A DNA stretch of 64,000 nucleotides from Oscillospiraceae bacterium (GCA_035380125.1 DAOSWV010000004.1:43562-107561), one strand, 5' to 3'. Positions 34,723 through 49,365 are shown, counted from the stretch's first letter. The notes: generated by a model from the letters alone, not told the origin. Numbers and translations: made by a program.

Positions 34723-37047
34723 ATGAAAAAGCTCATAGCTCTATTCCTTGCGGTATCACTGCTTTCACTGACGCTGACCGGAATTCCCGTTTCGGCTCAG
34801 GATACGGATTCCGGCATAAGAGCAGTTACATATCAATATATCGGCACAAGTCCGACGGGCTTGAACGATTATGTTCTGCTGGATGAAGACGGAAACGTCA
34901 TTGAAAACAAAGGCTTGATTGAGAATGATAACCGCGACAGAGCGCTTCCCGTCTCATTCGATTTGCGCAATGTTGAAGGCGTCAGTTATGTTACATCGGT
35001 AAAGAATCAGGGGAGTTACGGTACCTGCTGGTCTTTTGCTTCGGTGGGCGCTCTGGAATCCAATCTGATTATGCAGGGTATTGCGGACACATCGATTGAC
35101 CTTTCCGAATTGCATACGGCTTGGTATGCTTATACGAAAGATTCTGTGAGTGGCAGTACGACCTATAACGACGGAAAATCTTACACAGGCATAGATAAAT
35201 ACAATGCGGGCGGATGGTCAAGCACAGCGTATGGGCTTTGGGGTTCTGCCGAGGGTGCGCAACTGGACGAAAACGCACTGTATTCAAACGCGTCCAATAC
35301 TGGTTTTTTCACCGAGACACAACGAAAAGAATCTTATTACAGGGTCAAAAGCGCCTATGAAATTCCCGTAAATAATACGGATGCGGTGAAAAGCAGTTTG
35401 GTGGCAAACGGCGCTATGTATTTATCGTTTTGGTTAAACTGGAATTGTTTTAATGCATCTAAATCAACATATTATAATCCTTCTTATGATTATTCCAACG
35501 ACCCGTATTCTTCCAGTGGCGGACATGCGGTCCTTCTTGTTGGTTGGGATGATGATTATCCGGCTTCAAACTTTGTGACAACGCCGGCCGGAAACGGCGC
35601 TTGGCTGTGCCGGAACAGCTGGGGGACAAGTTCGGGTGATGGGGGTTACTTCTGGATTTCATATTATAATCATGCGATCACCAATTTCACGACTTTTATC
35701 GGTACAACCAATGACAATTATGATAATTACAATCAATATGAGCGCACCGGTTTCCCTCTTGCTTTAGTCAGCGATGAAATTTATCTTGCCAATGTCTTCA
35801 CTGCAAACACGGCGTCCACCCTCGAAGCGGTGGCTTTCCGTATGGAGAGTTACGACGGCACCTCCGGAACACCGGGATTTGATTATACAATTAAAATTTA
35901 TAAGAATTTGCCGACAACGGTGACAAACCCGACTGCAGGTACTCTTTCCGCTTCGGTTTCGGGACATTCCAATTACGGCGGCTACCTTACGGTGGATTTG
36001 TCTTCGGCTATATCACTTGCCGCCGGCACCAAATATTCCATCGTGATTTCATGTAAATCCACTTCGGCAATTTACGATGGTGTAGTTAATTTCGGCGCTG
36101 AGAAATTGGTCGGAACTACTCTTGATGAGGGAACAAATTCGAGCGCAGGAATCAGCTTTTGGGGTGATGGAGTCACCTGGGTTGATACATACGGGACCGC
36201 ATCCATCAGCGGTTTTGATTTTGACGGCAACTTCCCGATCAAAGCATTGACAGATGACGTCGATTCGACCTATGCGGCCACAAGGGCATTGGTTCAACAG
36301 CAACTCGACGAGACCGAGGGCTGTACACAGGGTACGGCAACCGCAGACCAGTGGACGGCATTTACCGAGGCCAGAACTCTCTGTGAAAGCATTGTGGACG
36401 ATACTACTGTGAGCAAAGCGGATTTGAACAACGCGGTCATTCGAATGAAGGTTACTCGTGAAAACGCACCGGGCATCTCATATCCGACTTCGGCGGATTT
36501 CACAATTTCCGTCAGCAACGGAATTGCGACTGTTACAGCTTATACCGGAACCGACACTTCGGTAACCGTACCGAAAACACTGGACGGATATACGCTGTCG
36601 ATTATCTCCTCAACCGCGTTCAGCGGGAATACCGCAATCAAAACCGTTTATTTCGAAGGAAATCCCTCCTCCATCTCCTCAACTGCGTTCTCTGGATGCA
36701 CGAGTCTCCAGTTCGTGTATTTCATGGGCAACGCGCCGGCGGTTTCCGGCACGATAGGGGCGGGCAGTCCGATTGGCGTTCCGACTTATTATAAAAACGG
36801 CACAACCGGATGGACCAGCAGCCCTTGGAGCGGCAATGCGACCGCAGTGGTTCCCGGTGACTTCAATTTAGACGTTTCTATGAATATCACCGATGCCGTG
36901 GCGTTCATTCAACGGTTGGCACAAGTCGGTTCTTATACCCTTGATGAATTCGCCGCAATTGATATTACACGTGACGGTTCGGTCAATATGGCGGATATCG
37001 TCCTATTAGTACAAGCATTGGCCAATCCTGCAATCGAGCTTAATTAA
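34723..37047 (+). CDS. secreted papain-family (C1) cysteine protease with BspA-type leucine-rich repeats and a C-terminal type-I-like dockerin
   Basis: Signal peptide MKKLIALFLAVSLLSLTLTGIPVSAQD. Catalytic residues are intact: QGSYGTCWSFAS (Cys102), GGHAVLLVGWDD (His268), RNSWG (Asn298). LRR segments read TLSIISSTAFSGNTAIKTVYF and ISSTAFSGCTSLQFVYF. The dockerin is described in the next feature. Confidence 0.85.
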   Translation: MKKLIALFLAVSLLSLTLTGIPVSAQDTDSGIRAVTYQYIGTSPTGLNDYVLLDEDGNVIENKGLIENDNRDRALPVSFDLRNVEGVSYVTSVKNQGSYGTCWSFASVGALESNLIMQGIADTSIDLSELHTAWYAYTKDSVSGSTTYNDGKSYTGIDKYNAGGWSSTAYGLWGSAEGAQLDENALYSNASNTGFFTETQRKESYYRVKSAYEIPVNNTDAVKSSLVANGAMYLSFWLNWNCFNASKSTYYNPSYDYSNDPYSSSGGHAVLLVGWDDDYPASNFVTTPAGNGAWLCRNSWGTSSGDGGYFWISYYNHAITNFTTFIGTTNDNYDNYNQYERTGFPLALVSDEIYLANVFTANTASTLEAVAFRMESYDGTSGTPGFDYTIKIYKNLPTTVTNPTAGTLSASVSGHSNYGGYLTVDLSSAISLAAGTKYSIVISCKSTSAIYDGVVNFGAEKLVGTTLDEGTNSSAGISFWGDGVTWVDTYGTASISGFDFDGNFPIKALTDDVDSTYAATRALVQQQLDETEGCTQGTATADQWTAFTEARTLCESIVDDTTVSKADLNNAVIRMKVTRENAPGISYPTSADFTISVSNGIATVTAYTGTDTSVTVPKTLDGYTLSIISSTAFSGNTAIKTVYFEGNPSSISSTAFSGCTSLQFVYFMGNAPAVSGTIGAGSPIGVPTYYKNGTTGWTSSPWSGNATAVVPGDFNLDVSMNITDAVAFIQRLAQVGSYTLDEFAAIDITRDGSVNMADIVLLVQALANPAIELN
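36847..37044 (+). other. dockerin-like module with two Ca-binding loop/helix repeats
   Basis: GDFNLDVSMNITDAVAFIQRL and IDITRDGSVNMADIVLLVQAL. Both loops fit D-x-[NT]-x-D-x3-N-x2-D. Confidence 0.7.
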
Positions 37048-37109: not shown

Positions 37110-38876
37110 TTATACTTTCTCCGCGTACATCTCGTAAAGGCCGGCATAAATGCCTTTCTTTGCAAGAAGCGCAGAATGCGTGCCCTGTTCGACGATGCCG
37201 TTTCGCGTCAAAACCAGAATCTTTGTGGCATTGCGGATGGTCGTCAGACGGTGGGCGATGGTCAGCGTGGTGCGGCCTTTTGCCAGCCGCTCGAGCGACT
37301 GCTGCACCAGTTTTTCGCTCTCGTTGTCGAGAGAACTGGTGGCCTCATCGAGGATCAGAATCGGCGGATTTTTCAAAAACACCCGCGCAATCGAAATGCG
37401 TTGCTTCTGACCGCCCGAGAGCTTGACGCCGCGTTCGCCGACATAAGTGTCGAATCCGTCGGGAAGTTCACCGATAAACTCATCGGCACCCGCGAGTTTG
37501 GCCGCCTCGAGAATCTCCTCGTCAGTCGCACCGGGCTTGCCGTATTCGATATTATCACGCACGCTGCCCGAAAACAGATAGACATCCTGCGCCACGACGC
37601 CGATTTGGCCACGCAGGGAAGACAAGGTGAAGTCGCGGATATCACGCCCGTCAATTTTAATGGAACCGCCGCGAGTCTCATAGAAGCGTGGAATCAGGCT
37701 GCACAGCGTGGTCTTTCCGCCGCCGGAAGGCCCGACCAGCGCGACATTTTCACCCGCGCCGATGTGGATGTTAATGTCCGCGAGAACATTATCGGTTTCC
37801 TCGGAATATTTGAACGAGACGTTTTCAAAATCAATCTCACCGCGTGCGTTTTCAAGCGCGATGGCATTCGGACTGTCGACGATGGTAGCGGGGGTGTCCA
37901 TGATCTCGGAAAAACGCTCGATTCCGGTCATACCACGTTGGAACTGTTCGGCAAATTCGACGATACGCCGGATTGAGGTCAGCAGTGTGGTGGCATACAT
38001 CAGATAAGCAATCAAATCGGCCGGTTGGATCTTGCCCTTGATCATAAACATGGAACCGGCGACGACGACCGTGATGTACATTACGCCGTCGAAAAACCGG
38101 GTCGAGGCTTGAAATCCCGCCATATAGCGGTAGACCTTGGTTTTGATTTTTAAAAAGCCGATATTGCCCTCTTCGAATTTTTCGCTCTCGATGCCTTCGT
38201 TGGCAAACGATTTCACCACGCGGATACCGAGCAGCGAATCCTCCACCTGCGAATTCAGCTCGCCGACCTTGATGCGCGACTGCCGAAAACCGGCCCGCAT
38301 ACGGGTATTGAAAAATTGCAGCACGAGTACCATCACCGGGATTACGGAGAATACGATCAGCGTCAGCCAAAAGCTGTATTGCGATAAAATCACAAACGCC
38401 GCGATGATCTTGATTCCCGCGATGAAGAATTCCTCGGGGCAGTGGTGGGCAAATTCGGTGACTTCAAACAGATCATTAGTGATGCGTGACATCAATTGCC
38501 CGATCTTGGTGTTATCGTAGAAAGAATACGAAAGTTTTTGCAGGTGGTTGAACATATCCCGGCGCATGTCGGTTTCGATTCTCGCACCCATAACGTGTCC
38601 GACTGAGGCCATGTAGTAATTGGCTGCGGTATCAATGATGCGCAGGACGAGATAAAGCCCGCCGAGTTTGAGAATCACGGCGATGGTCAGCGAGGCAATA
38701 TCATTAATCCCTGCGTTAGTGATATAACGCACGATCAGCGGCAGCACCAATTCGCATACGGTGGTGAACGCCGCGCAGAACAAGTCAAACACCAGAACCG
38801 GAATATATTTTTTATAATAGGGCAGGAACCGCCTTATAAGCCCTTTGCGGGGTTTTCTTTCTTCGTCTGAGAGCAT
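37110..38876 (-). CDS. ABC exporter, fused permease/ATPase (MsbA/multidrug type)
   Basis: 588 aa with a six-TM N-terminal half, Walker A GPSGGGKTT, signature LSGGQKQR and Walker B ILILDEATS. Confidence 0.85.
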   Translation of the reverse strand: MLSDEERKPRKGLIRRFLPYYKKYIPVLVFDLFCAAFTTVCELVLPLIVRYITNAGINDIASLTIAVILKLGGLYLVLRIIDTAANYYMASVGHVMGARIETDMRRDMFNHLQKLSYSFYDNTKIGQLMSRITNDLFEVTEFAHHCPEEFFIAGIKIIAAFVILSQYSFWLTLIVFSVIPVMVLVLQFFNTRMRAGFRQSRIKVGELNSQVEDSLLGIRVVKSFANEGIESEKFEEGNIGFLKIKTKVYRYMAGFQASTRFFDGVMYITVVVAGSMFMIKGKIQPADLIAYLMYATTLLTSIRRIVEFAEQFQRGMTGIERFSEIMDTPATIVDSPNAIALENARGEIDFENVSFKYSEETDNVLADINIHIGAGENVALVGPSGGGKTTLCSLIPRFYETRGGSIKIDGRDIRDFTLSSLRGQIGVVAQDVYLFSGSVRDNIEYGKPGATDEEILEAAKLAGADEFIGELPDGFDTYVGERGVKLSGGQKQRISIARVFLKNPPILILDEATSSLDNESEKLVQQSLERLAKGRTTLTIAHRLTTIRNATKILVLTRNGIVEQGTHSALLAKKGIYAGLYEMYAEKV

Positions 38877-38891
38877 TATGCCTCCTGTGTA

Positions 38892-40682
38892 TTATTTATT
38901 ATTGGTGCGGAAAAGCCGCTTGCCGTCGAGCTGATGATTCAGCATGGTATTGGCCTTTCTTTGCAGCTGTTCGGTGATCTCGGGCGACAGCCAGAAGATG
39001 TCTTCGAGCGCGGCTGTCGGTGAGAGCAGCAGCATTTCGCGTTCCCGGCCTTCGATCAGGCGGATGATTTCATAGGTATTGTCGATTTCGGCGCGGGTCA
39101 GGCGTTCGTATTCGAGCAGGCGCGGATCGGCGTCGAGCGGCCACTGCGGGCTGATTTCCGGTTCTTCGGTATAGTCGGTGGAATCGACGATGTCTTGAAA
39201 TTTCATCGCGTGCATATAGTTCTTTGCAAAACAGTTTAACAGCGAAAAGCGGTCTGCGGCCAACAGGAACAATTCCGGATGATCCGATTTTTCCGCAACA
39301 TTCAAATACAGTTTTCGTGCCGCATCAATTTGCGCCATCATCTTCTGAAGACATTTCGAGGCCAGAAATACCGCATAGTATCCACGGATGAACGAGGTGT
39401 TTTGGTTGTTGAGCAGGTCGTTGGCCTGTTCTTCATCGACGGCTTGGAACTGATACGGGCGGTAATAATCCTTTTCTTCTTCAGTCAGTTCGTCGGGGAA
39501 CAGCACAAACGGACGGTTGATGAGTCGCTGATTGACGCTGGTCCACGAGAAGCCCTCAATGCAGGTGTCGAGGTAGTGTTTGACGGAGAGGTCAATGGCC
39601 TGCCATGCGTCGACAAGCGCACCGGAATTTTGGCTTCCGGCGACCTGTGCGGCAAACTTTTTCAACAACGCGGCGCGGTCGGCAAAGGAACGAGTCGGGT
39701 GTTCTGAGAACATCTCATACAGCGTAAAATAACCGTCGAGGTCGTCGTCGTTGATATACAGCCGCAAAATTTCGCTCTTGCTTTCATTGGCATTTTGGAG
39801 TTGGCGCAGGTATTCAAAATAGAGCGGAATGCAGCGTACCGGAGAGTAGGTGAATTCGTAATTAACGTCGACCAACGAGGAGAGCGGCGTGCCTTTGTTG
39901 CTCTTGAAGTTGACAGCCATACCGTCGTCGAGCAGCGGCCAGACGGCGTCCATGACGCTCTCATCGGCTTTAAACCCGATATTGCTGTTGGTCTCGATGG
40001 AGATCTCCCGTCCCACGTCGGCAGCGCCTTCACGGAAGACGCGGAAATAACCGAGAATCCGCTGAGCTAACGGGATGTTCTTGCACCATTCGGGTCCGTT
40101 CGGGCCGTCGTAGAGTCCGCTGGAATGGCAGATACCCGCGCCGCAGTCGTTGGTGTGCAGATAGACATAATCAATTTCGGCGGTTTCGCAGAGTCTTTTC
40201 ATCGCGCTGCGATACATCGCCAGTACTTCGGGATTGTCCATGCAGGGACTGTAATAATAATTGGTTGCACGGCGGGGATGGTCGCAGCGTGGGCCACGCC
40301 AGGACGGATGGTCACGATAGACCTCCTCGGGCAGATAAAACGGCTCTGCGAAGTAGGCGGCGGCTTTCAAGCCGTATTTTTTCAAGATCGCACAGCGTTT
40401 TTTGATCAGTTCAAAGTTGCGGTTGGCATAATCCTGCGGAATGTAATTTTTCAATTCTTTCGGGACGATGATTTTAAACAGCGCCGAGTTGAGCATGCCC
40501 CAGTTGGGATAGGGATCACTCATATCGCGTTCCCAGATCCAGCGGCTTTTTTCGACTTCGGTGACGAAGATGTGGGTCGCACCGGCTTTGGCAGCCCTTG
40601 CGGCATATGTTTCGAACTTTTTCAGATCGGTGACATCGGTGTTGATTGGCGTGATCTGAAAAATGGTCATTTTCTTTTTCAT
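38892..40682 (-). CDS. hypothetical 596-aa cytoplasmic protein; family not recognised
   Basis: Long ORF with coding-like composition and no signal peptide. Its stop lies 15 nt upstream of the ABC exporter start, which implies co-transcription. Confidence 0.6.
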   Translation of the reverse strand: MKKKMTIFQITPINTDVTDLKKFETYAARAAKAGATHIFVTEVEKSRWIWERDMSDPYPNWGMLNSALFKIIVPKELKNYIPQDYANRNFELIKKRCAILKKYGLKAAAYFAEPFYLPEEVYRDHPSWRGPRCDHPRRATNYYYSPCMDNPEVLAMYRSAMKRLCETAEIDYVYLHTNDCGAGICHSSGLYDGPNGPEWCKNIPLAQRILGYFRVFREGAADVGREISIETNSNIGFKADESVMDAVWPLLDDGMAVNFKSNKGTPLSSLVDVNYEFTYSPVRCIPLYFEYLRQLQNANESKSEILRLYINDDDLDGYFTLYEMFSEHPTRSFADRAALLKKFAAQVAGSQNSGALVDAWQAIDLSVKHYLDTCIEGFSWTSVNQRLINRPFVLFPDELTEEEKDYYRPYQFQAVDEEQANDLLNNQNTSFIRGYYAVFLASKCLQKMMAQIDAARKLYLNVAEKSDHPELFLLAADRFSLLNCFAKNYMHAMKFQDIVDSTDYTEEPEISPQWPLDADPRLLEYERLTRAEIDNTYEIIRLIEGREREMLLLSPTAALEDIFWLSPEITEQLQRKANTMLNHQLDGKRLFRTNNK

Positions 40683-40914: not shown

Positions 40915-41643
40915 ATGGGAGATCTGGTGATTGACGTAAGCGACCTGAGGAAGGTCTACCGGATCGGTCAGGAAAAGGTTGTTGCGCTTGATCGTGTCAA
41001 TATACAGGTAGAACGCGGTACAATTTGCTGTCTGCTCGGGACTTCGGGTTCGGGTAAATCGACGCTTTTAAACATGCTGGCCGGGCTCGAAAAACCGACC
41101 AAAGGTACGATTACAATCGACGGAAACCACATCGACAAAATGAACGAAAAGTCGCTGGCGAAATACCGGCAGGGGAACATCGGGTTCGTGTTTCAAGGTT
41201 ACAATCTGATTCCGTCAATGACCGCATTGGAGAATGTGGCGCTGCCGCTGACCTTTGAGGGAGTGCCGAGAAAAGCACGGTTAAAGGCCGCGAAAGATAT
41301 TCTGACAAACGTGGGACTCGGCGACCATCTGAATCACAGACCGGACCAGCTTTCGGGCGGACAACAGCAGCGGGTTGGCATTGCGCGGGCGTTTGTGGCA
41401 GCGCCGAAAATTGTCTTTGCGGACGAGCCGACCGGGAATCTCGACTCCAAGACCACCACCGAGATCATGGATTTGATCGTACGCGAGATCCGAAAAAACC
41501 ACGGCACGCTGGTACTTGTTACGCACGACCGGGATTTGGCGAAATACGCTGATAAGATTTTTCATGTCCTTGACGGGAACATCCTCAGCGTTGAAGAAAA
41601 CGAACATCCGCAGATTGTTACGCAGTCAGCGGAAGTACATTGA
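40915..41643 (+). CDS. ABC transporter ATP-binding protein (MacB/LolD/FtsE-type)
   Basis: Walker A GTSGSGKST, Q-loop, LSGGQQQRVGIARA and Walker B IVFADEPTGNLD. Confidence 0.9.
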   Translation: MGDLVIDVSDLRKVYRIGQEKVVALDRVNIQVERGTICCLLGTSGSGKSTLLNMLAGLEKPTKGTITIDGNHIDKMNEKSLAKYRQGNIGFVFQGYNLIPSMTALENVALPLTFEGVPRKARLKAAKDILTNVGLGDHLNHRPDQLSGGQQQRVGIARAFVAAPKIVFADEPTGNLDSKTTTEIMDLIVREIRKNHGTLVLVTHDRDLAKYADKIFHVLDGNILSVEENEHPQIVTQSAEVH

Positions 41644-41657
41644 AGAAGGGTAACAAT

Positions 41658-43676
41658 ATGATAATTACAAAAAAGAGAATGCTTGCATGGATTTTTGCAC
41701 TGGTGATGGCTTTTTCACTGTTCGCGGCGACAGTAGGGGCCGCAGAGGCGCCCCTGTCATTTTCGGTCGGCTCCCAGAACGTATTTACACCGGGTTACGC
41801 CACCGTCCCCATCCTCGTGATGAATAATGGGAATAAAGAAGTTAAAATCACCAATATCGAAGTCCTGTCCGGCTGCGACTTTGAGCCGGTAAACGTGGTG
41901 GTTCCCAATGCGAAAATTGCCGCGAATTCACCGCAGGTCGTTTCCATCAACGCTTTTTATAAAGGTACCGGCGGTTTGCTGAGCATTCGGGTCACTTCAA
42001 TCATCGATTCGGTCACCTATATCAATAATACAACCGTTTCGATTAACGGGACGGCGGTTCCTTCGAGTTCCGACGGTTCTGCGCCGCTGCTCAATGTCAC
42101 AGCGGTCAGCGCAAACGGCCTCATGGGCGGCAGAACGAGCAACATCACCCTGTCAATTGCAAATGCCGGCACAGGTGCCGCACACAGCGTTTCCGTTCAG
42201 CTGGCAGGCACCGGGGACGCCGCACAGTATTTCACGATGGCATCGGGGCAGGGCAGTACAACGCTGATCAACCCGGTTTCTTTGGGAAGTGTCATCATCC
42301 CGTTGGCGATCTCGGCCGATATTCCGGGCGGCAATTATGTTCTCGGTTACACCATCACCGCGAATTCCGACGATGGCACCCCTTCGACCTTTGAGGGCAC
42401 AATCACCGTCGCAGTCAAAGCGCGTGATCTGGCAGCGCTGCCGTATGTCAAATCCATCGGCATTCAAAAAGCCGACGAAAACAATCCCAACCGATACCTG
42501 ATGACAGTTGTCGTGGCCAATCCGGGCGAATACGATATCAGCAAGATGAACGTGACGTTCGGTTCACAGCCGACCTCCGGATTCTCGCTGTACGAAAACT
42601 TCACACCGGTGTCTTTGGGCGCTATCTCCTCAGGGAAAGAGGCGCAGGCCGTTTTCTCGGTCTATATCGACAGTTCGGTCTCCGCCGGAAACTATCCGCT
42701 CACTTTCGGCCTTAATTACCGCTCGACGGATATGACAACCGATTCTAAGTTGGACAGCACCGCCTATCTCGAACTCGACCGCGGCGCGGGCAGTTCTTCT
42801 TCAACCCCGAGAATCATTATTTCGAAATATAATACAAGTACTGACACCATCACCTCGGGCAACGAATTTAAACTCAGCTTCACTTTGAAAAACACCGCAA
42901 AGACCACCGAAGTCCGAAACATCAAAGTCGTTCTGTCTTCGGGTTCTGTGTCCAGCGGCGGCGCGGTTTTTGTGGTTGCCGAAGGCAGCAACTCGTTCTA
43001 TATCGACAGCATTGCCGCCGAGAGTGAAGCCACCAAATCGATTCAGCTCGTAGCCAATCAGGACGCGGAACCGGGCATTTATCCGATCATGCTCTCTATT
43101 GAATACGAGGATGAGAGCGGCAGAACCTTCAGCACGACCGAGGAACTCTCGTTCGCTGTCAGCCAGGAGCAACGTCTTGAGACGGTCGGCTTCAACCTGA
43201 TGCAGAGCGCCATGGAAGGCGATATGATCCCTGTCAGCTTTCAGTATATCAATAAGGGAAAAGCCACGATTTATAACCTGACAATCGCTGTGGAAGGCGA
43301 CTTTACACTTTCGAGCGGCGATACTTATGTCGGTAATATGAATGCCGGACAAAATGACTATTTTGACGACTACATGATGGCGATGGGTACCGGTACAATG
43401 ACCGGTGCAATCGTCTTAAAATATGAGAGCTCGAACGGCACCCCGCAGGAACTGCGGCAGGAATTCACCGTCGAGGTCATGCCGATGGAGGTTACAGATC
43501 CGACCGATCCGGGTTTCCCGGTTGATCCCGTGGGTCCGATTGAACCGGTTCAAAACGGTTTGGCATGGTGGGTCTGGACGTTGATCGGTTTCGGTGCGGT
43601 TGCAGTTGTCACGGTCATTATCGTGGTTTCGGTAAAAAAGGCAAAGAAAGCAAAGGCAGCAAATGAAGAAGACTGA
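41658..43676 (+). CDS. secreted, C-terminally membrane-anchored protein built from ~5-6 CARDB/COG1361-like beta-sandwich repeats
   Basis: Start at ATG 41658; a TTG at 41640 would overlap the upstream stop. Signal peptide ...SLFAATVGAAEA. Repeated patterns are VMNNGNKEVKITNIEV, LSIANAGTGAAHSVSVQL, VVVANPGEYDISKMNVTF, FTLKNTAKTTEVRNIKVVL and FQYINKGKATIYNLTIAV. A C-terminal TM helix is followed by KKAKKAK. Confidence 0.7.
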   Translation: MIITKKRMLAWIFALVMAFSLFAATVGAAEAPLSFSVGSQNVFTPGYATVPILVMNNGNKEVKITNIEVLSGCDFEPVNVVVPNAKIAANSPQVVSINAFYKGTGGLLSIRVTSIIDSVTYINNTTVSINGTAVPSSSDGSAPLLNVTAVSANGLMGGRTSNITLSIANAGTGAAHSVSVQLAGTGDAAQYFTMASGQGSTTLINPVSLGSVIIPLAISADIPGGNYVLGYTITANSDDGTPSTFEGTITVAVKARDLAALPYVKSIGIQKADENNPNRYLMTVVVANPGEYDISKMNVTFGSQPTSGFSLYENFTPVSLGAISSGKEAQAVFSVYIDSSVSAGNYPLTFGLNYRSTDMTTDSKLDSTAYLELDRGAGSSSSTPRIIISKYNTSTDTITSGNEFKLSFTLKNTAKTTEVRNIKVVLSSGSVSSGGAVFVVAEGSNSFYIDSIAAESEATKSIQLVANQDAEPGIYPIMLSIEYEDESGRTFSTTEELSFAVSQEQRLETVGFNLMQSAMEGDMIPVSFQYINKGKATIYNLTIAVEGDFTLSSGDTYVGNMNAGQNDYFDDYMMAMGTGTMTGAIVLKYESSNGTPQELRQEFTVEVMPMEVTDPTDPGFPVDPVGPIEPVQNGLAWWVWTLIGFGAVAVVTVIIVVSVKKAKKAKAANEED

Positions 43677-45030
43677 TATTGCGCTGATGGCGTTGGGTAA
43701 CTTCCGGCGCCGGAAAGCACGTTCCGTTTTGACGGTACTCGGTGTTGTCATCGGCGTGGCGTCAATCGTGGTTATGATCTCGCTGGGCGTCGCATTGAAC
43801 GTGAACTTCTCCAAAGAGATGGAGAACATGGGCGACCTGACGTTGGTCAATGTCTATCCGAACTGGAGCGAGGGTAAGGAAGTTCCGTTGACTGATGATG
43901 CGGTTAAAGAACTGCAGACCATTGACGGCGTAATTGCGGTTTCTCCGCAAGTATCCCTATATGGCCACTTCATCTCCGGAAAATATCACGCGAATGTCTC
44001 GATAATCGGCGTACGCCGCGACATCATGGAAAAACTCGGTTTTACGGTGGCGAGCGGTGAGATGCTGCCCGAGACTTCGACTGCCGCCGGAAAGACTTTT
44101 AGTTGCCTTTTCGGTTCACAGGTTGCCTCGTTCTTTTATAATCCGAGGGACAACGGCAGCTGGGGCGGCGGAGGTATTGCTTACAAAGAAGCCATAGCCC
44201 CCGGCGGTGTCGTCGTTGATGACGGTGAATACCAAGAACCGGTATTATTAGTCGACCCTTTGACGGATCGCATCCAGTTCACTTTCGACTATAACTATAA
44301 GATGCCCAATACTTATGACGACGGCAATACCAATGTCGCCAAGGTCTATACGCTCGACATCACAGGCGTGCTTGCGTCAGAAAACGGCGAGAAGGACTAT
44401 AATGTCTATGTCGACATGGAGACGGCCCTCAAGCTGAAGAAGGAATACGACAAATACAACGGTAACAAAACAAGCGCGAAAATTACCTACGACCAGATCT
44501 ATGTCAAGGCTAAAACAATGAACGAGACCATCGACATTGCCAAGCAGATTCAGGATCTCGGGTATCAGGCCTATGCTAATGCCGAATGGATTGCCAGTTA
44601 TCAAAAGCAGATGCAGAGCATCCAGCTGATTCTGGGCGGCATCGGTGCGGTTTCGCTGCTGGTTGCCGCGATCGGCATTACCAACACGATGATTATGTCC
44701 ATCTATGAGCGCACCCGTGAGATCGGCATTATGAAAGTCATCGGCTGCGTGGTCGGCGATATCCGTTCGTTGTTTCTGTATGAGGCAGGTATTATCGGTT
44801 TGGTCGGCGGTGCGATTGGCATTGGATTTAGCTATGCACTATCGTTTGTCTTAAATAAGGTGGGCGGCGGCTCATTGTTCGGCGGAATGGACGGCAGCAA
44901 ACTGTCGGTAATTCCGGCATGGTTGGCGCTCGGTGCGGTGTTGTTCGCCGTACTCGTCGGGCTGATCGCCGGGTTTCTGCCGGCGCACAGAGCTACGCGG
45001 CTCTCCGCGCTTGAGGCCATGAGATATTAG
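43663..45030 (+). CDS. ABC transporter permease, FtsX/MacB family with a large extracytoplasmic domain
   Basis: 455 aa. The N-terminus ALGNFRRRKARSVLTVLGVVIGVASIV, the MacB-type periplasmic domain and a C-terminal FtsX 3-TM bundle are present. It overlaps the upstream gene by 14 nt. Confidence 0.85.
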   Translation: MKKTDIALMALGNFRRRKARSVLTVLGVVIGVASIVVMISLGVALNVNFSKEMENMGDLTLVNVYPNWSEGKEVPLTDDAVKELQTIDGVIAVSPQVSLYGHFISGKYHANVSIIGVRRDIMEKLGFTVASGEMLPETSTAAGKTFSCLFGSQVASFFYNPRDNGSWGGGGIAYKEAIAPGGVVVDDGEYQEPVLLVDPLTDRIQFTFDYNYKMPNTYDDGNTNVAKVYTLDITGVLASENGEKDYNVYVDMETALKLKKEYDKYNGNKTSAKITYDQIYVKAKTMNETIDIAKQIQDLGYQAYANAEWIASYQKQMQSIQLILGGIGAVSLLVAAIGITNTMIMSIYERTREIGIMKVIGCVVGDIRSLFLYEAGIIGLVGGAIGIGFSYALSFVLNKVGGGSLFGGMDGSKLSVIPAWLALGAVLFAVLVGLIAGFLPAHRATRLSALEAMRY

Positions 45031-45210: not shown

Positions 45211-45909
45211 ATGAGAAACGACTTTCCGCGCATTTTATCATTACTGCGTAAGGAACGAAATATAAGCCAAAAGGCTGCCGCCCAAAAACTCGGCATCAGC
45301 CAGGCGCTTTTATCCCATTATGAAAAAGGTATCCGAGAATGCGGATTGGATTTTGTGATCGCTGTCGCCGACGAATACGGCGTCTCGACCGACTATCTGT
45401 TGGGCCGGACGTCCGACCGGCAGGGCGTACAGCTTATGGCAGAGGATATCCCCGAATATGACGATTCCGGTGATAAAACCTTTAACGGCAGCGTCGTTGC
45501 AACCCTGAACAAGAAGTTAATTGTCAATACAGTAAGTATAGTTTTCGATCAGCTTCGTTCACCGAAATTAAAGGATCTGACCACCGAGATTAGCGCATAT
45601 CTGTCACTGGCTTTGTATAAAGTATTTCATATTCTGTATTGTGCCAATCCCAAGAATCCCCGTGCGATGTTTGCGATTCGGGAGGGGCTTTCGACCGGCT
45701 TGAGCAACGCGGCGATGCAGGTGAGTGAGGCTTATATGACCACGCTTTGTTCCGGGGACGCAATCGGCGAATACAGCCCTGTGACACCGGAAATCGCACC
45801 GGAGATGTCTCCGGAGCAGTTATCCTCCCGTTATCAGCAAACCGCCGCCTCGCTGTTCAACGTCGTCAGCGCGGCCGAATCGAGGATGGGCGCCAAGCCC
45901 AAGAAATAG
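45211..45909 (+). CDS. XRE-family HTH protein with a ~165-aa C-terminal domain; putative antitoxin/regulator
   Basis: HTH segment LRKERNISQKAAAQKLGISQALLSHYEKG. Its stop lies 13 nt before the proposed ATT start of the zeta-like ORF and overlaps that gene's SD. Confidence 0.8.
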   Translation: MRNDFPRILSLLRKERNISQKAAAQKLGISQALLSHYEKGIRECGLDFVIAVADEYGVSTDYLLGRTSDRQGVQLMAEDIPEYDDSGDKTFNGSVVATLNKKLIVNTVSIVFDQLRSPKLKDLTTEISAYLSLALYKVFHILYCANPKNPRAMFAIREGLSTGLSNAAMQVSEAYMTTLCSGDAIGEYSPVTPEIAPEMSPEQLSSRYQQTAASLFNVVSAAESRMGAKPKK

Positions 45910-45922
45910 GGGGTGTTGACCC

Positions 45923-46504
45923 ATTAAAACCTTCACCATCATCGGCGGCGTAAACGGCGCCGGGAAGTCCAGTTTATCCGGTGTGCTCCAATCCGAGCGT
46001 AAAGATCTGGGCGAAATAATAAATGTAGATGACATCGCTGCCGAGAGAGAAATTTCTAACATCGAAGCGGGTAAAATTGCGTTGGGCAGAATAAAGCAGC
46101 TGATGAATAAAGGGCTTAATTTTACTCAGGAGACAACTTTATCCGGTGTCAAAACCTTTCAAACGATCGGCCGTGCCCGCCGCAGAGGATATTATATCCG
46201 TCTGTATTATGTCGGGCTTGAGACCGTTGAGGAAAGTATCATGCGCATCCGTATTCGTGCGGAAAACGGCGGTCATTTTATTCCCGAAGCCGATGTTGTC
46301 AGACGGTTTAATTTCCGATATTCAAATCTTATGCGGATTTTACCTCAATGTGATGAGGTGCATTTTTACGATAATTGCAACGGGTTTGTGGAAGTTGCCC
46401 GGATTGTGGAGGGACAGTTATTTTTCCGGGGTGCCCTGACGCCGAAGTGGATGGTTGAATTGAGTAGTTATATCCAAAGAGCCAAAGACAACAATCGAAT
46501 GTGA
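45923..46504 (+). CDS. zeta-toxin/COG4185-type P-loop kinase; proposed non-canonical ATT start
   Basis: Walker A GGVNGAGKSS is encoded at 45944-45973, upstream of the first canonical start (GTG 45983). The in-frame stop TGA lies at 45917-45919. SD-like AGGGGGTG (45908-45915) sits 7 nt before the ATT at 45923. The C-terminal block RIRIRAENGGHFIPEADVVRRF...FYDN is typical of the family. Confidence 0.6.
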   Translation: MKTFTIIGGVNGAGKSSLSGVLQSERKDLGEIINVDDIAAEREISNIEAGKIALGRIKQLMNKGLNFTQETTLSGVKTFQTIGRARRRGYYIRLYYVGLETVEESIMRIRIRAENGGHFIPEADVVRRFNFRYSNLMRILPQCDEVHFYDNCNGFVEVARIVEGQLFFRGALTPKWMVELSSYIQRAKDNNRM

Positions 46505-47011: not shown

Positions 47012-47824
47012 ATGAAGCAACGGATACTGATCACGCAGGATAACACCCAAAACGCCTCGGAATTGGCAAATTCTTTAACTCGAGCCGGAATTGAGGTGTC
47101 TACCGTTCCTCGGAACGGGAAGGTGGTTTTGGAGATGATGAGAGCATCGACAAAATTCGACGCTGCATTGATTGACTTCAATCTCGCCGGCATCGACGCC
47201 ATCGGCGTCATCAACGAGGCAAGGACCATCAGCCCAGGGACAAAAATTATGGTCATGACAGCTTTTCTAACAGGGGAACTTGAGCGTCAGGTCTTTGCGG
47301 CCGGCGGACAGTATTTGTTGCTGAAACCGTTTGACCCTCAGATTGCAGTAGACCGCCTGCTGAGTTTGACGGGAATGTCCGGTGCAGAGAGGGGTTTCCA
47401 TGAGATGTCGGACAGCGAACTGTTGATGATGGTGACCGAGATCATTCATCAGGTGGGCGTGCCGGCACATATCAAAGGATATCAATATCTGAGGGACTCC
47501 ATTGTGATGTGTATCAACGACGGGGAGTACATAAACGCAGTGACAAAGATGCTCTATCCCGATGTTGCAAAAAAACACAGCACAACCGCATCACGCGTAG
47601 AGCGAGCAATCCGTCATGCCATCGAAGTCGCTTGGGATCGCGGAGATATTGACGTTTTAAATACTTTGTTCGGTTATACAATTCATACAGGCAGAGGAAA
47701 ACCGACCAATTCGGAATTTATCGCCATGATTGCGGACAAGCTGAAATTGCGTATCGACAATGAAAAACAGCGTCGCTTTTCGTCGCTGCGAGCGCCGGAT
47801 AAAAGCGAGCTGTTGAAAATTTAA
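47012..47824 (+). CDS. spo0A: sporulation master regulator Spo0A (receiver plus Spo0A-specific DNA-binding domain)
   Basis: The C-terminal domain [26 protein letters not shown]...[20 protein letters not shown]...[25 protein letters not shown] is diagnostic. GAAAGGAG RBS upstream. Confidence 0.92.
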
Positions 47825-47905: not shown

Positions 47906-49108
47906 TTATTTTTCAATGTAATCATCAGGCGCAAGCAGGCTGACAGCCTTGTTCCAGGAATGCGTAAGAGCGATGCGTGTGTCGCTGATCATAAAGTAGT
48001 CATAATTTAAAGTGCCGTCCGTCATATCGGCGCGATCGTCAGCCACGATGTCGATGTGATACCAGCTGTCATTGAGCTTGACCAGATTCCAGACACGGCG
48101 CTGAGAATTTACCGTTCCGACGATCACACGAGTTTCAATACCGGCGATGCCGGCCAACAACTGAAAAGCGTCCGCATAGCCGTCGCTGACGGCGATATCA
48201 CTCGCTAAAACACTGTAAGCAACAGTTTCCGAATAAGCGGCGTCTTCTCCGGCTAAAGCGTCTAAATTGCCGTTTTTAACAATATAATCGTGAATAATTT
48301 TTATTTTCTGATAATCGGAAAGGCCGGAGGAGAGTTGGGCTTCGGCAAATTTCTTTGCAGAATTGCAAGCTTGGCTTTGCAGCAAAGAGAGCCCGGTGAG
48401 ATTGCCTGAAGAAAGCGCGGTCAGACAGCTTGAGGCAAAATTCGGCGTCAATTGGAAAGTGACCGGATAAACCTCTGACATGGTCTCGTCTCCGACAAAA
48501 TAGATCTTTTCCTTTACATCGGCTGAATAAAGACCGTAAACCGGATCGATCGTGAGATCCTCGAGAAGCGCTGTGTCATAAAGATAGGCGTTGAAAACAC
48601 TGTCTTCGGATAGAAGAGAGACCTTTAAGACGGATGCCAATTTATCAACGGTATCACAAATGGTGATACATTCGACTTGACAACTTTCGGTCAGATCTCC
48701 GAGCAGTGTTGATGCGGTGATTACCGCTGAACCGGGATTGACAAATTCGACAACGCCTTCTTTTATAGAGGCCACAGAGTTGTCCGTGCTGCTCCAGACC
48801 AATTGTTTTCCGAGTGCATCGGCGGGATAGACAACCGAGTTGATGGTGTAGGACTGTCCATCGGCGAGATAAATCTTTTGCGTATCGAGCTTGAGCTGCT
48901 CCGGGAGGATTGTCTCGGGCTGCGGCTGAGATGATGCGACAGAGGATTCCTGAGAAACCTCTACAACGGAGAAGTCGGGCTCGGATACCGAGGCGGTACT
49001 GCCGGAGACTTCAATGGAGGTTACGGATATAACGGAAGAAGTTTCACTGCAGCCCGTTAAGAGCAGTACAGCTGCCAAAAAAAGCGGAGTCAACTTGTTT
49101 AACCGCAT
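47906..49108 (-). CDS. lipoprotein with a Big_2-like Ig domain and a transglutaminase-like core domain
   Basis: The start is taken at MRLNKL (AAGGAGG RBS). The lipobox reads LLLTGC. VWSSTDNSVASIKEGVVEFVNPGSAVITAS marks the Ig domain. The C-terminus carries SDGYADAFQLL...RVWNLVKLNDSWYHIDIV. Confidence 0.7.
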   Translation of the reverse strand: MRLNKLTPLFLAAVLLLTGCSETSSVISVTSIEVSGSTASVSEPDFSVVEVSQESSVASSQPQPETILPEQLKLDTQKIYLADGQSYTINSVVYPADALGKQLVWSSTDNSVASIKEGVVEFVNPGSAVITASTLLGDLTESCQVECITICDTVDKLASVLKVSLLSEDSVFNAYLYDTALLEDLTIDPVYGLYSADVKEKIYFVGDETMSEVYPVTFQLTPNFASSCLTALSSGNLTGLSLLQSQACNSAKKFAEAQLSSGLSDYQKIKIIHDYIVKNGNLDALAGEDAAYSETVAYSVLASDIAVSDGYADAFQLLAGIAGIETRVIVGTVNSQRRVWNLVKLNDSWYHIDIVADDRADMTDGTLNYDYFMISDTRIALTHSWNKAVSLLAPDDYIEK

Positions 49109-49365
49109 ATCTGTCGCCTCCTTTCGGCGTTTCGGGTTTGATGGCATAAAGCCGAGGTATTAAATCGCCATTATGATAGCATAAAGATTAATAAAATGTC
49201 AAATTGATTTATATTGGTAATTTTGTTTCGAATGTACGACGATTTCACTTGGATATTGGACGTATATCGAATTCAATTTTAATTTACTCCTTATATATGA
49301 GGATATTGTGAATACATGATGAGTAAAACGGAAGGTTAGATATTTCCAAATGTCACAAAAACATT

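Follow-up and report, generated by a model that had tools for sequence, protein, structure and literature searches.

Does a large beta-sandwich protein encoded between the ATPase and the permease of an ATP-binding cassette (ABC) transporter belong to that transporter, and in what capacity? The question is raised by a locus in a 64,000-nucleotide (nt) stretch of DNA from an Oscillospiraceae bacterium (GCA_035380125.1, DAOSWV010000004.1:43562-107561), which is referred to here as the window and numbered from its first letter. The listing of open reading frames (ORFs) and the raw sequence bear out the order that the original prediction had read from this DNA: an ATPase gene, a gene for a secreted protein (the middle gene) and a gene for a permease, which together are a single operon. 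On balance, we favor a model in which a type VII ABC machine (MacB-like, of the mechanotransmission type) has the middle protein as its obligatory extracytoplasmic subunit; our confidence in any specific physiological role of the module is lower than in the partner model itself.

Comparative genomics strongly indicates that the middle protein is a partner of the transporter. Retention of the middle gene between the ATPase and permease genes of relatives had been set beforehand as a test of the prediction, and the order ATPase, middle gene, permease was found on one strand in all 52 loci that were fetched (49 from a profile scan of one genome per GTDB species, plus metagenome contigs), with identities of the middle protein down to 24%. 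The order is identical in the P0241 subgroup, and the ATPase is absent from related loci solely at contig ends. Already in the first search, two distant relatives (30% and 26% identity) were flanked by an ABC_tran gene on one side and a MacB_PCD/FtsX gene on the other. Start and stop codons of adjacent triad genes often overlap in related loci. Carriers of the triad belong to the Oscillospiraceae/Ruminococcaceae, Lachnospiraceae, Anaerovoracaceae, Defluviitaleaceae, Clostridiaceae and unclassified Clostridia, and include the Lachnospiraceae isolates Anaerolentibacter hominis, Anaeromicropila populeti and Clostridium sp. KNHs205; the window locus itself recurs identically in several Joint Genome Institute (JGI) metagenome contigs. 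A word-index protein search recovered only 9 relatives of the middle protein, and the size of the family was seen with an exhaustive profile search, which returned 1517 clusters (50% identity) at E <= 1e-30. One homologue from an isolate (P0026) carries the NCBI name 'COG1361 S-layer family protein', which is an annotation label. The window ATPase is 53-87% identical to the ATPases of related triad loci, versus 45-47% to YknY-like (47%) and MJ0796-like ATPases, consistent with one vertically inherited transporter lineage tied to the beta-sandwich partner.

The middle protein is of the COG1361/CARDB kind and has type I membrane topology. It had been predicted to contain about five to six CARDB/COG1361-like repeats. 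The proposed hmmscan supports the CARDB type, with Pfam scores above threshold for CARDB (36.1 bits, cut-off 22.7), NPCBM_assoc (35.8 bits, cut-off 24.4) and TRAP_beta (23.0 bits, cut-off 22.4). As to the count, two AlphaFold2 models, built from 9 sequences (mean predicted local distance difference test score, pLDDT, 72.5) and from 86 sequences (mean pLDDT 87.8), agree on five beta-sandwich domains, D1 to D5, and not six. The sequence motif described for the repeats also held up: its strict form occurs three times in the protein versus 0.05 expected in shuffles, and D2 and D3 contain less exact copies. Hydropathy and AlphaFold2 likewise agree with the predicted proline-rich stalk, C-terminal transmembrane (TM) helix and KKAKKAK tail, in which a basic cluster is followed by an acidic end (KKAKKAK...EED).

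No lipobox cysteine was found in the signal peptide, and LPXTG, SLH, CWB2 and lipobox features were not seen in the Pfam scan and hydropathy profile of the protein; lipoprotein or sortase anchoring was rejected for the lack of a lipobox cysteine and of LPXTG. Both models were also compared by fold with the PDB, and the only matches were generic tandem beta-sandwich arrays at the level of domains, with template modeling scores (TM-scores) of 0.1-0.2, among them ciliary central-apparatus proteins, macroglobulin (MG) domains of alpha-2-macroglobulin and complement, and transglutaminase C-terminal domains. These PDB matches contained no enzyme or catalytic domain and no known ABC partner, and a PDB sequence search with the profile of the middle protein gave no meaningful match.

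Conservation is graded along the protein. When the window protein was compared with 50 homologues of less than 70% identity, the fraction of homologues aligned was 0.04 for D1, 0.40 for D2, 0.76 for D3, 0.96 for D4 and 0.99 for D5, with 0.85 for the stalk and 0.66 for the TM helix plus tail. The corresponding fractions of identical positions were 0.01, 0.11, 0.19, 0.39 and 0.39 for D1 to D5, 0.30 for the stalk and 0.23 for the TM helix plus tail. Homologues range from 538 to 1385 amino acids (aa), and their distal domains differ in number and sequence. The proline-, glycine- and aspartate-rich stalk, the TM helix, the lysine/arginine cluster and the acidic end are present in nearly all homologues with a recovered C-terminus. 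Consensus motifs that run through the family lie in D4-D5 (PKLIIS.Y.T, NT...NIKV, GSNSFY, F.FYNMGK and YEDS.G). Judging from these alignments, D4-D5 are the conserved core of the family and D1-D3 behave as a variable extension. D4-D5 being best conserved, the constrained part of the protein is the portion nearest the membrane and the permease.

The core also diverges with the permease. Among pairwise distances from 36 complete loci, the Spearman correlation of the middle-protein core was 0.80 with the permease extracytoplasmic domain, 0.80 with the permease TM part and 0.58 with the ATPase. The two core-permease figures match the correlation between the extracytoplasmic and TM halves of the permease itself (0.795). 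Given the ATPase, the partial correlation of core and permease was 0.68; given the permease, that of core and ATPase was 0.03. This pattern fits a middle protein that is constrained together with the permease and is supportive, not conclusive. Together with the conservation gradient, it favors a partner over an unrelated surface protein. Six metagenome-assembled genome (MAG) loci, L006, L019, L020, L025, L026 and L030, in which the ATPase or permease frame is split or fused, were left out of this analysis; the broken frames probably reflect errors of assembly or frameshifts and may alternatively mark pseudogenes.

What kind of transporter does the middle protein accompany? The ATPase matches ABC_tran in Pfam (3.8e-37), and its motifs are intact in translation: Walker A GTSGSGKST, signature LSGGQQQR, Walker B IVFADEPTGNLD and H-loop VTHD. 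Its top NCBIfam matches are LolD, MacB and FtsE, each under its own cut-off, with the LolD, MacB and YbbA models matching at 5e-68 to 3e-64. The nearest solved homologues are YtrE (9o9x, 4.6e-57) and MJ0796 (1f3o, 1e-55). By these matches, the ATPase belongs to the LolD/MacB/MJ0796/YtrE subfamily. The permease matches MacB_PCD (PF12704; 8.8e-19, 69 bits, cut-off 27; aa 21-156) and FtsX (PF02687; 1.6e-18, 67.3 bits, cut-off 25.5). Hydropathy gives it four hydrophobic segments (aa 18-50, 317-348, 354-397 and 412-444). It aligns to MacB (5gko), Spr0695 (5xu1) and YtrF (9o9x), with the MacB alignment covering TM1, the first part of the extracytoplasmic domain, and TM2-TM4. The extracytoplasmic domain is variable among relatives, and its conserved positions are scattered. 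The two Pfam domains above threshold and the solved-structure alignments uphold the original assignment to a MacB/FtsX-type (type VII) ABC system. With the equivalog models for FtsX, LolC/E and MacB far under their cut-offs, the permease is of type VII and falls outside the named systems.

What is understood of type VII ABC systems comes from their partners: efflux with MacA-TolC, wall hydrolysis with EnvC, PcsB or CwlO, and lipoprotein release with LolA. The module resembles YknXYZ and Spr0693-0695 in its separate LolD/MacB-type ATPase, its four-TM permease with MacB_PCD and FtsX, its monoderm host and a partner that is membrane-anchored and extracytoplasmic. The gene order is equal in a Tepidanaerobacteraceae operon, which encodes an ATPase, a YknX-like membrane-fusion protein (559 aa) and a MacB permease; the wording of the original prediction, that the middle protein occupies the adaptor position, is fair, given the YknX-like adaptor in the middle slot of that operon. 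The partner differs. Here it consists of five CARDB-type beta-sandwiches and lacks the lipoyl, beta-barrel and hairpin domains, and its anchor helix is C-terminal, versus N-terminal in the YknXYZ/Spr0693-0695 partner. The predicted absence of an HlyD-like adaptor was borne out: no HlyD-type domain was found in the middle protein by Pfam scan, and tblastn with one YknX-like protein gave no match in the window or the 52 related loci, a single query of limited sensitivity. With no membrane-fusion adaptor found in these two tests, the module falls outside the tripartite pumps of the MacAB/YknXYZ type.

FtsEX with EnvC, PcsB, CwlO or RipC is the paradigm of a non-transporting ABC complex, in which the extracytoplasmic domain moves a dedicated partner. 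The triad transporter shares its superfamily; an assignment to FtsEX was rejected on low scores (FtsX_Gpos 51 bits versus a cut-off of 225, FtsE 206 versus 265) and a partner made of beta-sandwiches only. Unlike FtsEX, the permease has an extracytoplasmic domain about twice as long, and the partner has no coiled coil, hydrolase or LytM domain. LolCDE was rejected as well (lolCE 68 bits versus 362, LolD 229 versus 308), the host being a Spo0A-carrying member of the Clostridia and not a diderm. So was BceAB-type peptide resistance, since the permease has 4 TM segments in 455 aa versus 10 TM segments and no conserved two-component system is adjacent. Similarity to YtrEF of the Bacillus subtilis YtrBCDEF system, which includes the closest solved ATPase homologue (YtrE) and one of the closest solved permease homologues (YtrF), is at the subfamily level only. 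We know of no COG1361-type gene in the ytr operon. The known link of YtrBCDEF is to cell-wall homeostasis and wall thickness, not to any identified transported substrate (PMC8060467). The characterized Gram-positive MacB relatives YknXYZ, AS-48FGH and Spr0693-0695 protect against peptides, and a review of the MacB family names no COG1361-type partner (PMC5985334).

A similar pairing occurs in archaea. The orthologue of MJ0796 in Methanocaldococcus sp. FS406-22 (92% identical to the MJ0796 query, a sequence that the search itself confirmed) lies in L053:1673-7204. The genes there are, in order, SpoIIM-like, Yip1-like, a CARDB protein, a small membrane protein, the ATPase, a second small membrane protein and a MacB_PCD/FtsX permease; both small proteins are multi-TM. 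Like the clostridial module, this MJ0796/MJ0797 locus combines an MJ0796-subfamily ATPase with a permease of MacB_PCD and FtsX domains (26% identical to the window permease) and a CARDB protein (507 aa; CARDB 36.8 bits) that begins with a hydrophobic, signal-like segment, continues with beta-sandwich repeats and ends in a TM segment and a basic tail. It differs in gene order, in the extra SpoIIM-like and Yip1-like membrane proteins, and in a permease of 367 aa in total, with a shorter extracytoplasmic domain than that of the window permease. MJ0796 is a classic structural model of an ABC ATPase, and to our knowledge its function was never assigned. Archaeal arCOG01996 neighborhoods combine a SalXY-like ABC transporter with 'S-layer proteins', and Makarova et al. 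(2014, 2015) proposed membrane remodeling, secretion or defense for such loci, without experiments (PMC5898192, PMC4158269); one of these proposals is worded as 'membrane-associated defense' (PMC4158269). The type IV pilus (T4P) paper of Makarova et al. contains nothing on ABC transporters.

The triad varies in some relatives. About half of the related loci, most of them from Lachnospiraceae and a single Clostridia clade, have a fourth gene, encoding a small protein of 62-180 aa, between the middle gene and the permease (for example L002:5239-5769, L039:6667-7200, L036:6973-7257 and L015:6564-6845, with about 25 further loci). Its product begins with an acidic stretch of low complexity and ends in a TM helix and a conserved basic tail (e.g., KRKIKKGIELYED), with no signal peptide and no Pfam match, and may be an additional single-pass subunit. 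A Clostridiaceae MAG carries the module in tandem duplicate (L023:138-7407), as a middle gene and permease followed by an ATPase, middle gene and permease.

Around the triad, a neighbor survey of the related loci revealed no further gene conserved across families and no conserved two-component system, bacteriocin cluster or mobile-element genes. PADLOC gave generic ABC and LolE-TM matches and nothing specific. An anti-phage defense island was rejected on these two results. In Lachnospiraceae, a cytidylate-kinase-like gene and a gene for an AI-2E-family transporter precede the triad, which is followed by gltX and a gene for a UvrD-like helicase. The absence of resistance, defense or mobile context, together with this housekeeping synteny, suggests a core envelope function over an accessory island. 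Being chromosomal, with housekeeping synteny in some families, the module may take part in the normal envelope biology of abundant anaerobes.

The mechanism that we consider somewhat more probable than not runs as follows. The ATPase presumably forms a cytoplasmic dimer. The middle protein would be exported by Sec and anchored through its C-terminal TM helix and, by analogy with related operons, would fill the place of the MacA/YknX membrane-fusion adaptor. Its TM helix and D4-D5 would bind to the permease, D4-D5 presumably at the extracytoplasmic domain, and the variable D1-D3 and the stalk would reach into or through the cell wall. From typical domain sizes, five beta-sandwiches and a stalk of about 28 residues could span on the order of 20 nm. 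ATP binding and hydrolysis would move the permease extracytoplasmic domain, a mechanical coupling that we infer, and the beta-sandwich subunit, driven by this movement or working in concert with it, would take part in handling something on the external side of the membrane. Most likely, the module maintains the cell envelope or expels membrane-active peptides, and neither import nor efflux from the cytoplasm is a likely role.

Several points weigh against this model. Contact between the middle protein and the permease is presumed from comparative genomics, and the poor conservation of the permease extracytoplasmic domain means that no shared interface is pinpointed. The co-divergence pairs are non-independent and partly mirror the alike, fast rates that extracytoplasmic proteins share. 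Variable distal domains are equally typical of free-standing surface proteins and adhesins. No substrate is hinted at by the context of the triad. The archaeal CARDB protein matches the clostridial core at the generic CARDB level only (hhalign probability 78%); with the differing gene order, this makes the archaeal pairing a parallel for which common descent is not established. A broader proposal, which we put forward tentatively and hold to be more doubtful than the partnership itself, is that C-terminally TM-anchored COG1361/CARDB proteins are a distinct, ancient partner class of type VII ABC mechanotransducers, beside the MacA/YknX adaptors and the FtsEX partners of the EnvC/PcsB type. It would be common to Clostridia and archaea, the MJ0796 locus included, and a class in which a beta-sandwich rod spanning the wall or S-layer zone is moved or gated by cytoplasmic ATP hydrolysis.

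The original prediction had also left room for the middle protein as the substrate of the transporter, which is possible and less likely than a partner role, given the protein's own signal peptide for Sec and its conserved TM anchor. A client role of this kind would have the ABC machine extract, release, position or help to assemble the Sec-exported protein as an S-layer-like surface component, in the manner of LolCDE, which extracts lipoproteins from the membrane. LolCDE does share the permease superfamily, one homologue bears the S-layer family label, the distal domains vary as they do in surface-exposed proteins, and a second small TM-anchored protein is added in about half of the related loci. 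We nevertheless judge it improbable, since the mature protein conserves its TM helix and charged cytoplasmic tail, no conserved cleavage or sorting motif was found (LPXTG, SLH and lipobox included), and Lol-type extraction targets acyl chains, not TM helices. Moreover, a protein encoded in every locus studied between the subunits of an ATP-driven machine, with that machine devoted to it alone, looks more like a subunit than like a client. If the middle gene instead encoded an independent surface protein or adhesin, cotranscribed by chance with an unrelated MacB-type exporter, this would account for beta-sandwich domains of generic types that are widespread in surface proteins, and would fit a permease contact that is presumed. 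Such chance cotranscription is hard to reconcile, however, with an insertion between ATPase and permease kept in 52 of 52 loci across several families and down to 24% identity, with the frequently overlapping start and stop codons of the triad and with the co-divergence of core and permease, and we regard it as very improbable.

Defense is a further alternative. The module could act in SalXY- or YknYZ-like immunity, with the middle protein as a surface capture device or shield, as the immunity protein LanI is with LanFEG, and with no mechanical driving. Peptide protection by YknXYZ, AS-48FGH and Spr0693-0695 speaks for this, as does the defense proposal for the archaeal SalXY-like loci. Yet bacteriocin genes, two-component systems and resistance context are not conserved around the triad, PADLOC found nothing specific, the Lachnospiraceae synteny is of a housekeeping kind, and peptide binding by the middle protein would be conjecture; we consider this explanation as unlikely as that of a client protein. 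The partner model, in which the middle protein is a working subunit, is the one that we retain.

How much of this was known? A full-text literature search (COG1361, CARDB with FtsX, MJ0795/MJ0797 and YtrEF) yielded no description or functional study of a bacterial module of ATPase, COG1361 protein and permease. The earlier statement that this class of partner has no described function therefore stands for the literature searched; the family itself had been seen before, in the NCBI COG1361 label and in the archaeal loci of Makarova et al. New here is a MacB-type ABC system with a different partner class; the COG1361 annotation and the archaeal neighborhood were already known. Among Clostridia from gut, rumen and digesters, many carry the module in strictly conserved form, with a partner that differs in fold and topology. 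A partner function, if shown, would add a new type of output to the mechanotransmission mechanism and could open a first route to the function of the archaeal MJ0796/MJ0797 system.

The features of the operon are collected in Table 1. The junctions between the genes were all given correctly by the original prediction. A gap of 14 nt separates the ATPase stop codon (TGA, 41641-41643) from the ATG of the middle gene, and the 3' end of the middle gene overlaps the permease start by 14 nt. An alternative TTG start at 41640, which would give a protein of 678 aa, overlaps the ATPase stop. The predicted length of 673 aa for the middle protein needs correction, because the stop codon had been counted. 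Translational coupling of the middle gene is suggested by its ribosome-binding site, which shares nucleotides with the ATPase stop codon. A promoter and terminator scan gave no signal clearly exceeding shuffle expectation.

Table 1. Features of the ATPase, middle-gene and permease operon (positions in the window)
Feature	Position	Strand	Basis
ABC ATPase gene, 242 aa	40915-41643	+	ORF listing
Ribosome-binding site GAAGAAGGG	41642-41650	+	Sequence reading; 7 nt 5' of ATG 41658
Middle gene, 672 aa	41658-43676	+	ORF listing, ATG start
Sec-type signal peptide, aa 1-31, ...ATVGA/AEAP	41658-41750	+	Hydropathy aa 6-31, N-terminal helix in models, alignment
Distal beta-sandwiches D1 (aa 33-128), D2 (aa 145-254), D3 (aa 263-373)	41754-42776	+	AlphaFold2 model
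Membrane-proximal beta-sandwiches D4 (aa 386-502), D5 (aa 507-608)	42813-43481	+	AlphaFold2 model, pLDDT >90
Pro/Gly/Asp-rich disordered stalk, aa 609-636, PMEVTDPTDPGFPVDPVGPIEPVQNG	43482-43565	+	pLDDT <50 for aa 620-635
C-terminal TM helix and short cytoplasmic tail KKAKKAKAANEED	43566-43673	+	AlphaFold2 helix aa 637-671, hydropathy TM 634-663
Permease gene, 455 aa	43663-45030	+	ORF listing
Permease extracytoplasmic domain, ~aa 51-316 (~265 aa)	43813-44610	+	Between TM1 and TM2, hydropathy topology

On the 3' side of the operon (45211-46504), we identified an HTH_3 (RstR-like) regulator of 232 aa, 180 nt from the permease gene, and a weakly Zeta_toxin-like protein of 173 aa; both adjoin the operon in the closest relatives only (L003 and L005), and they are probably not parts of the module. 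Divergent from the operon, a gene on the minus strand (38892-40682) encodes a predicted cytoplasmic protein of 596 aa with no match in Pfam, NCBIfam or PADLOC, and beyond it lies an ABC_membrane/ABC_tran exporter gene (37110-38876, minus strand). Further upstream (34723-37047) is a secreted papain-like (Peptidase_C1) protein that carries a lectin-like domain and, at its C-terminus, a weak match to dockerin, which suggests a cellulosome-type lifestyle of the host. A matching JGI contig encodes a very large Ig-repeat protein further upstream. Downstream, the window contains Spo0A (47012-47824; Response_reg and Spo0A_C) next to a secreted transglutaminase-core protein (47906-49147), and the Spo0A gene places the host among the endospore-forming Clostridia.

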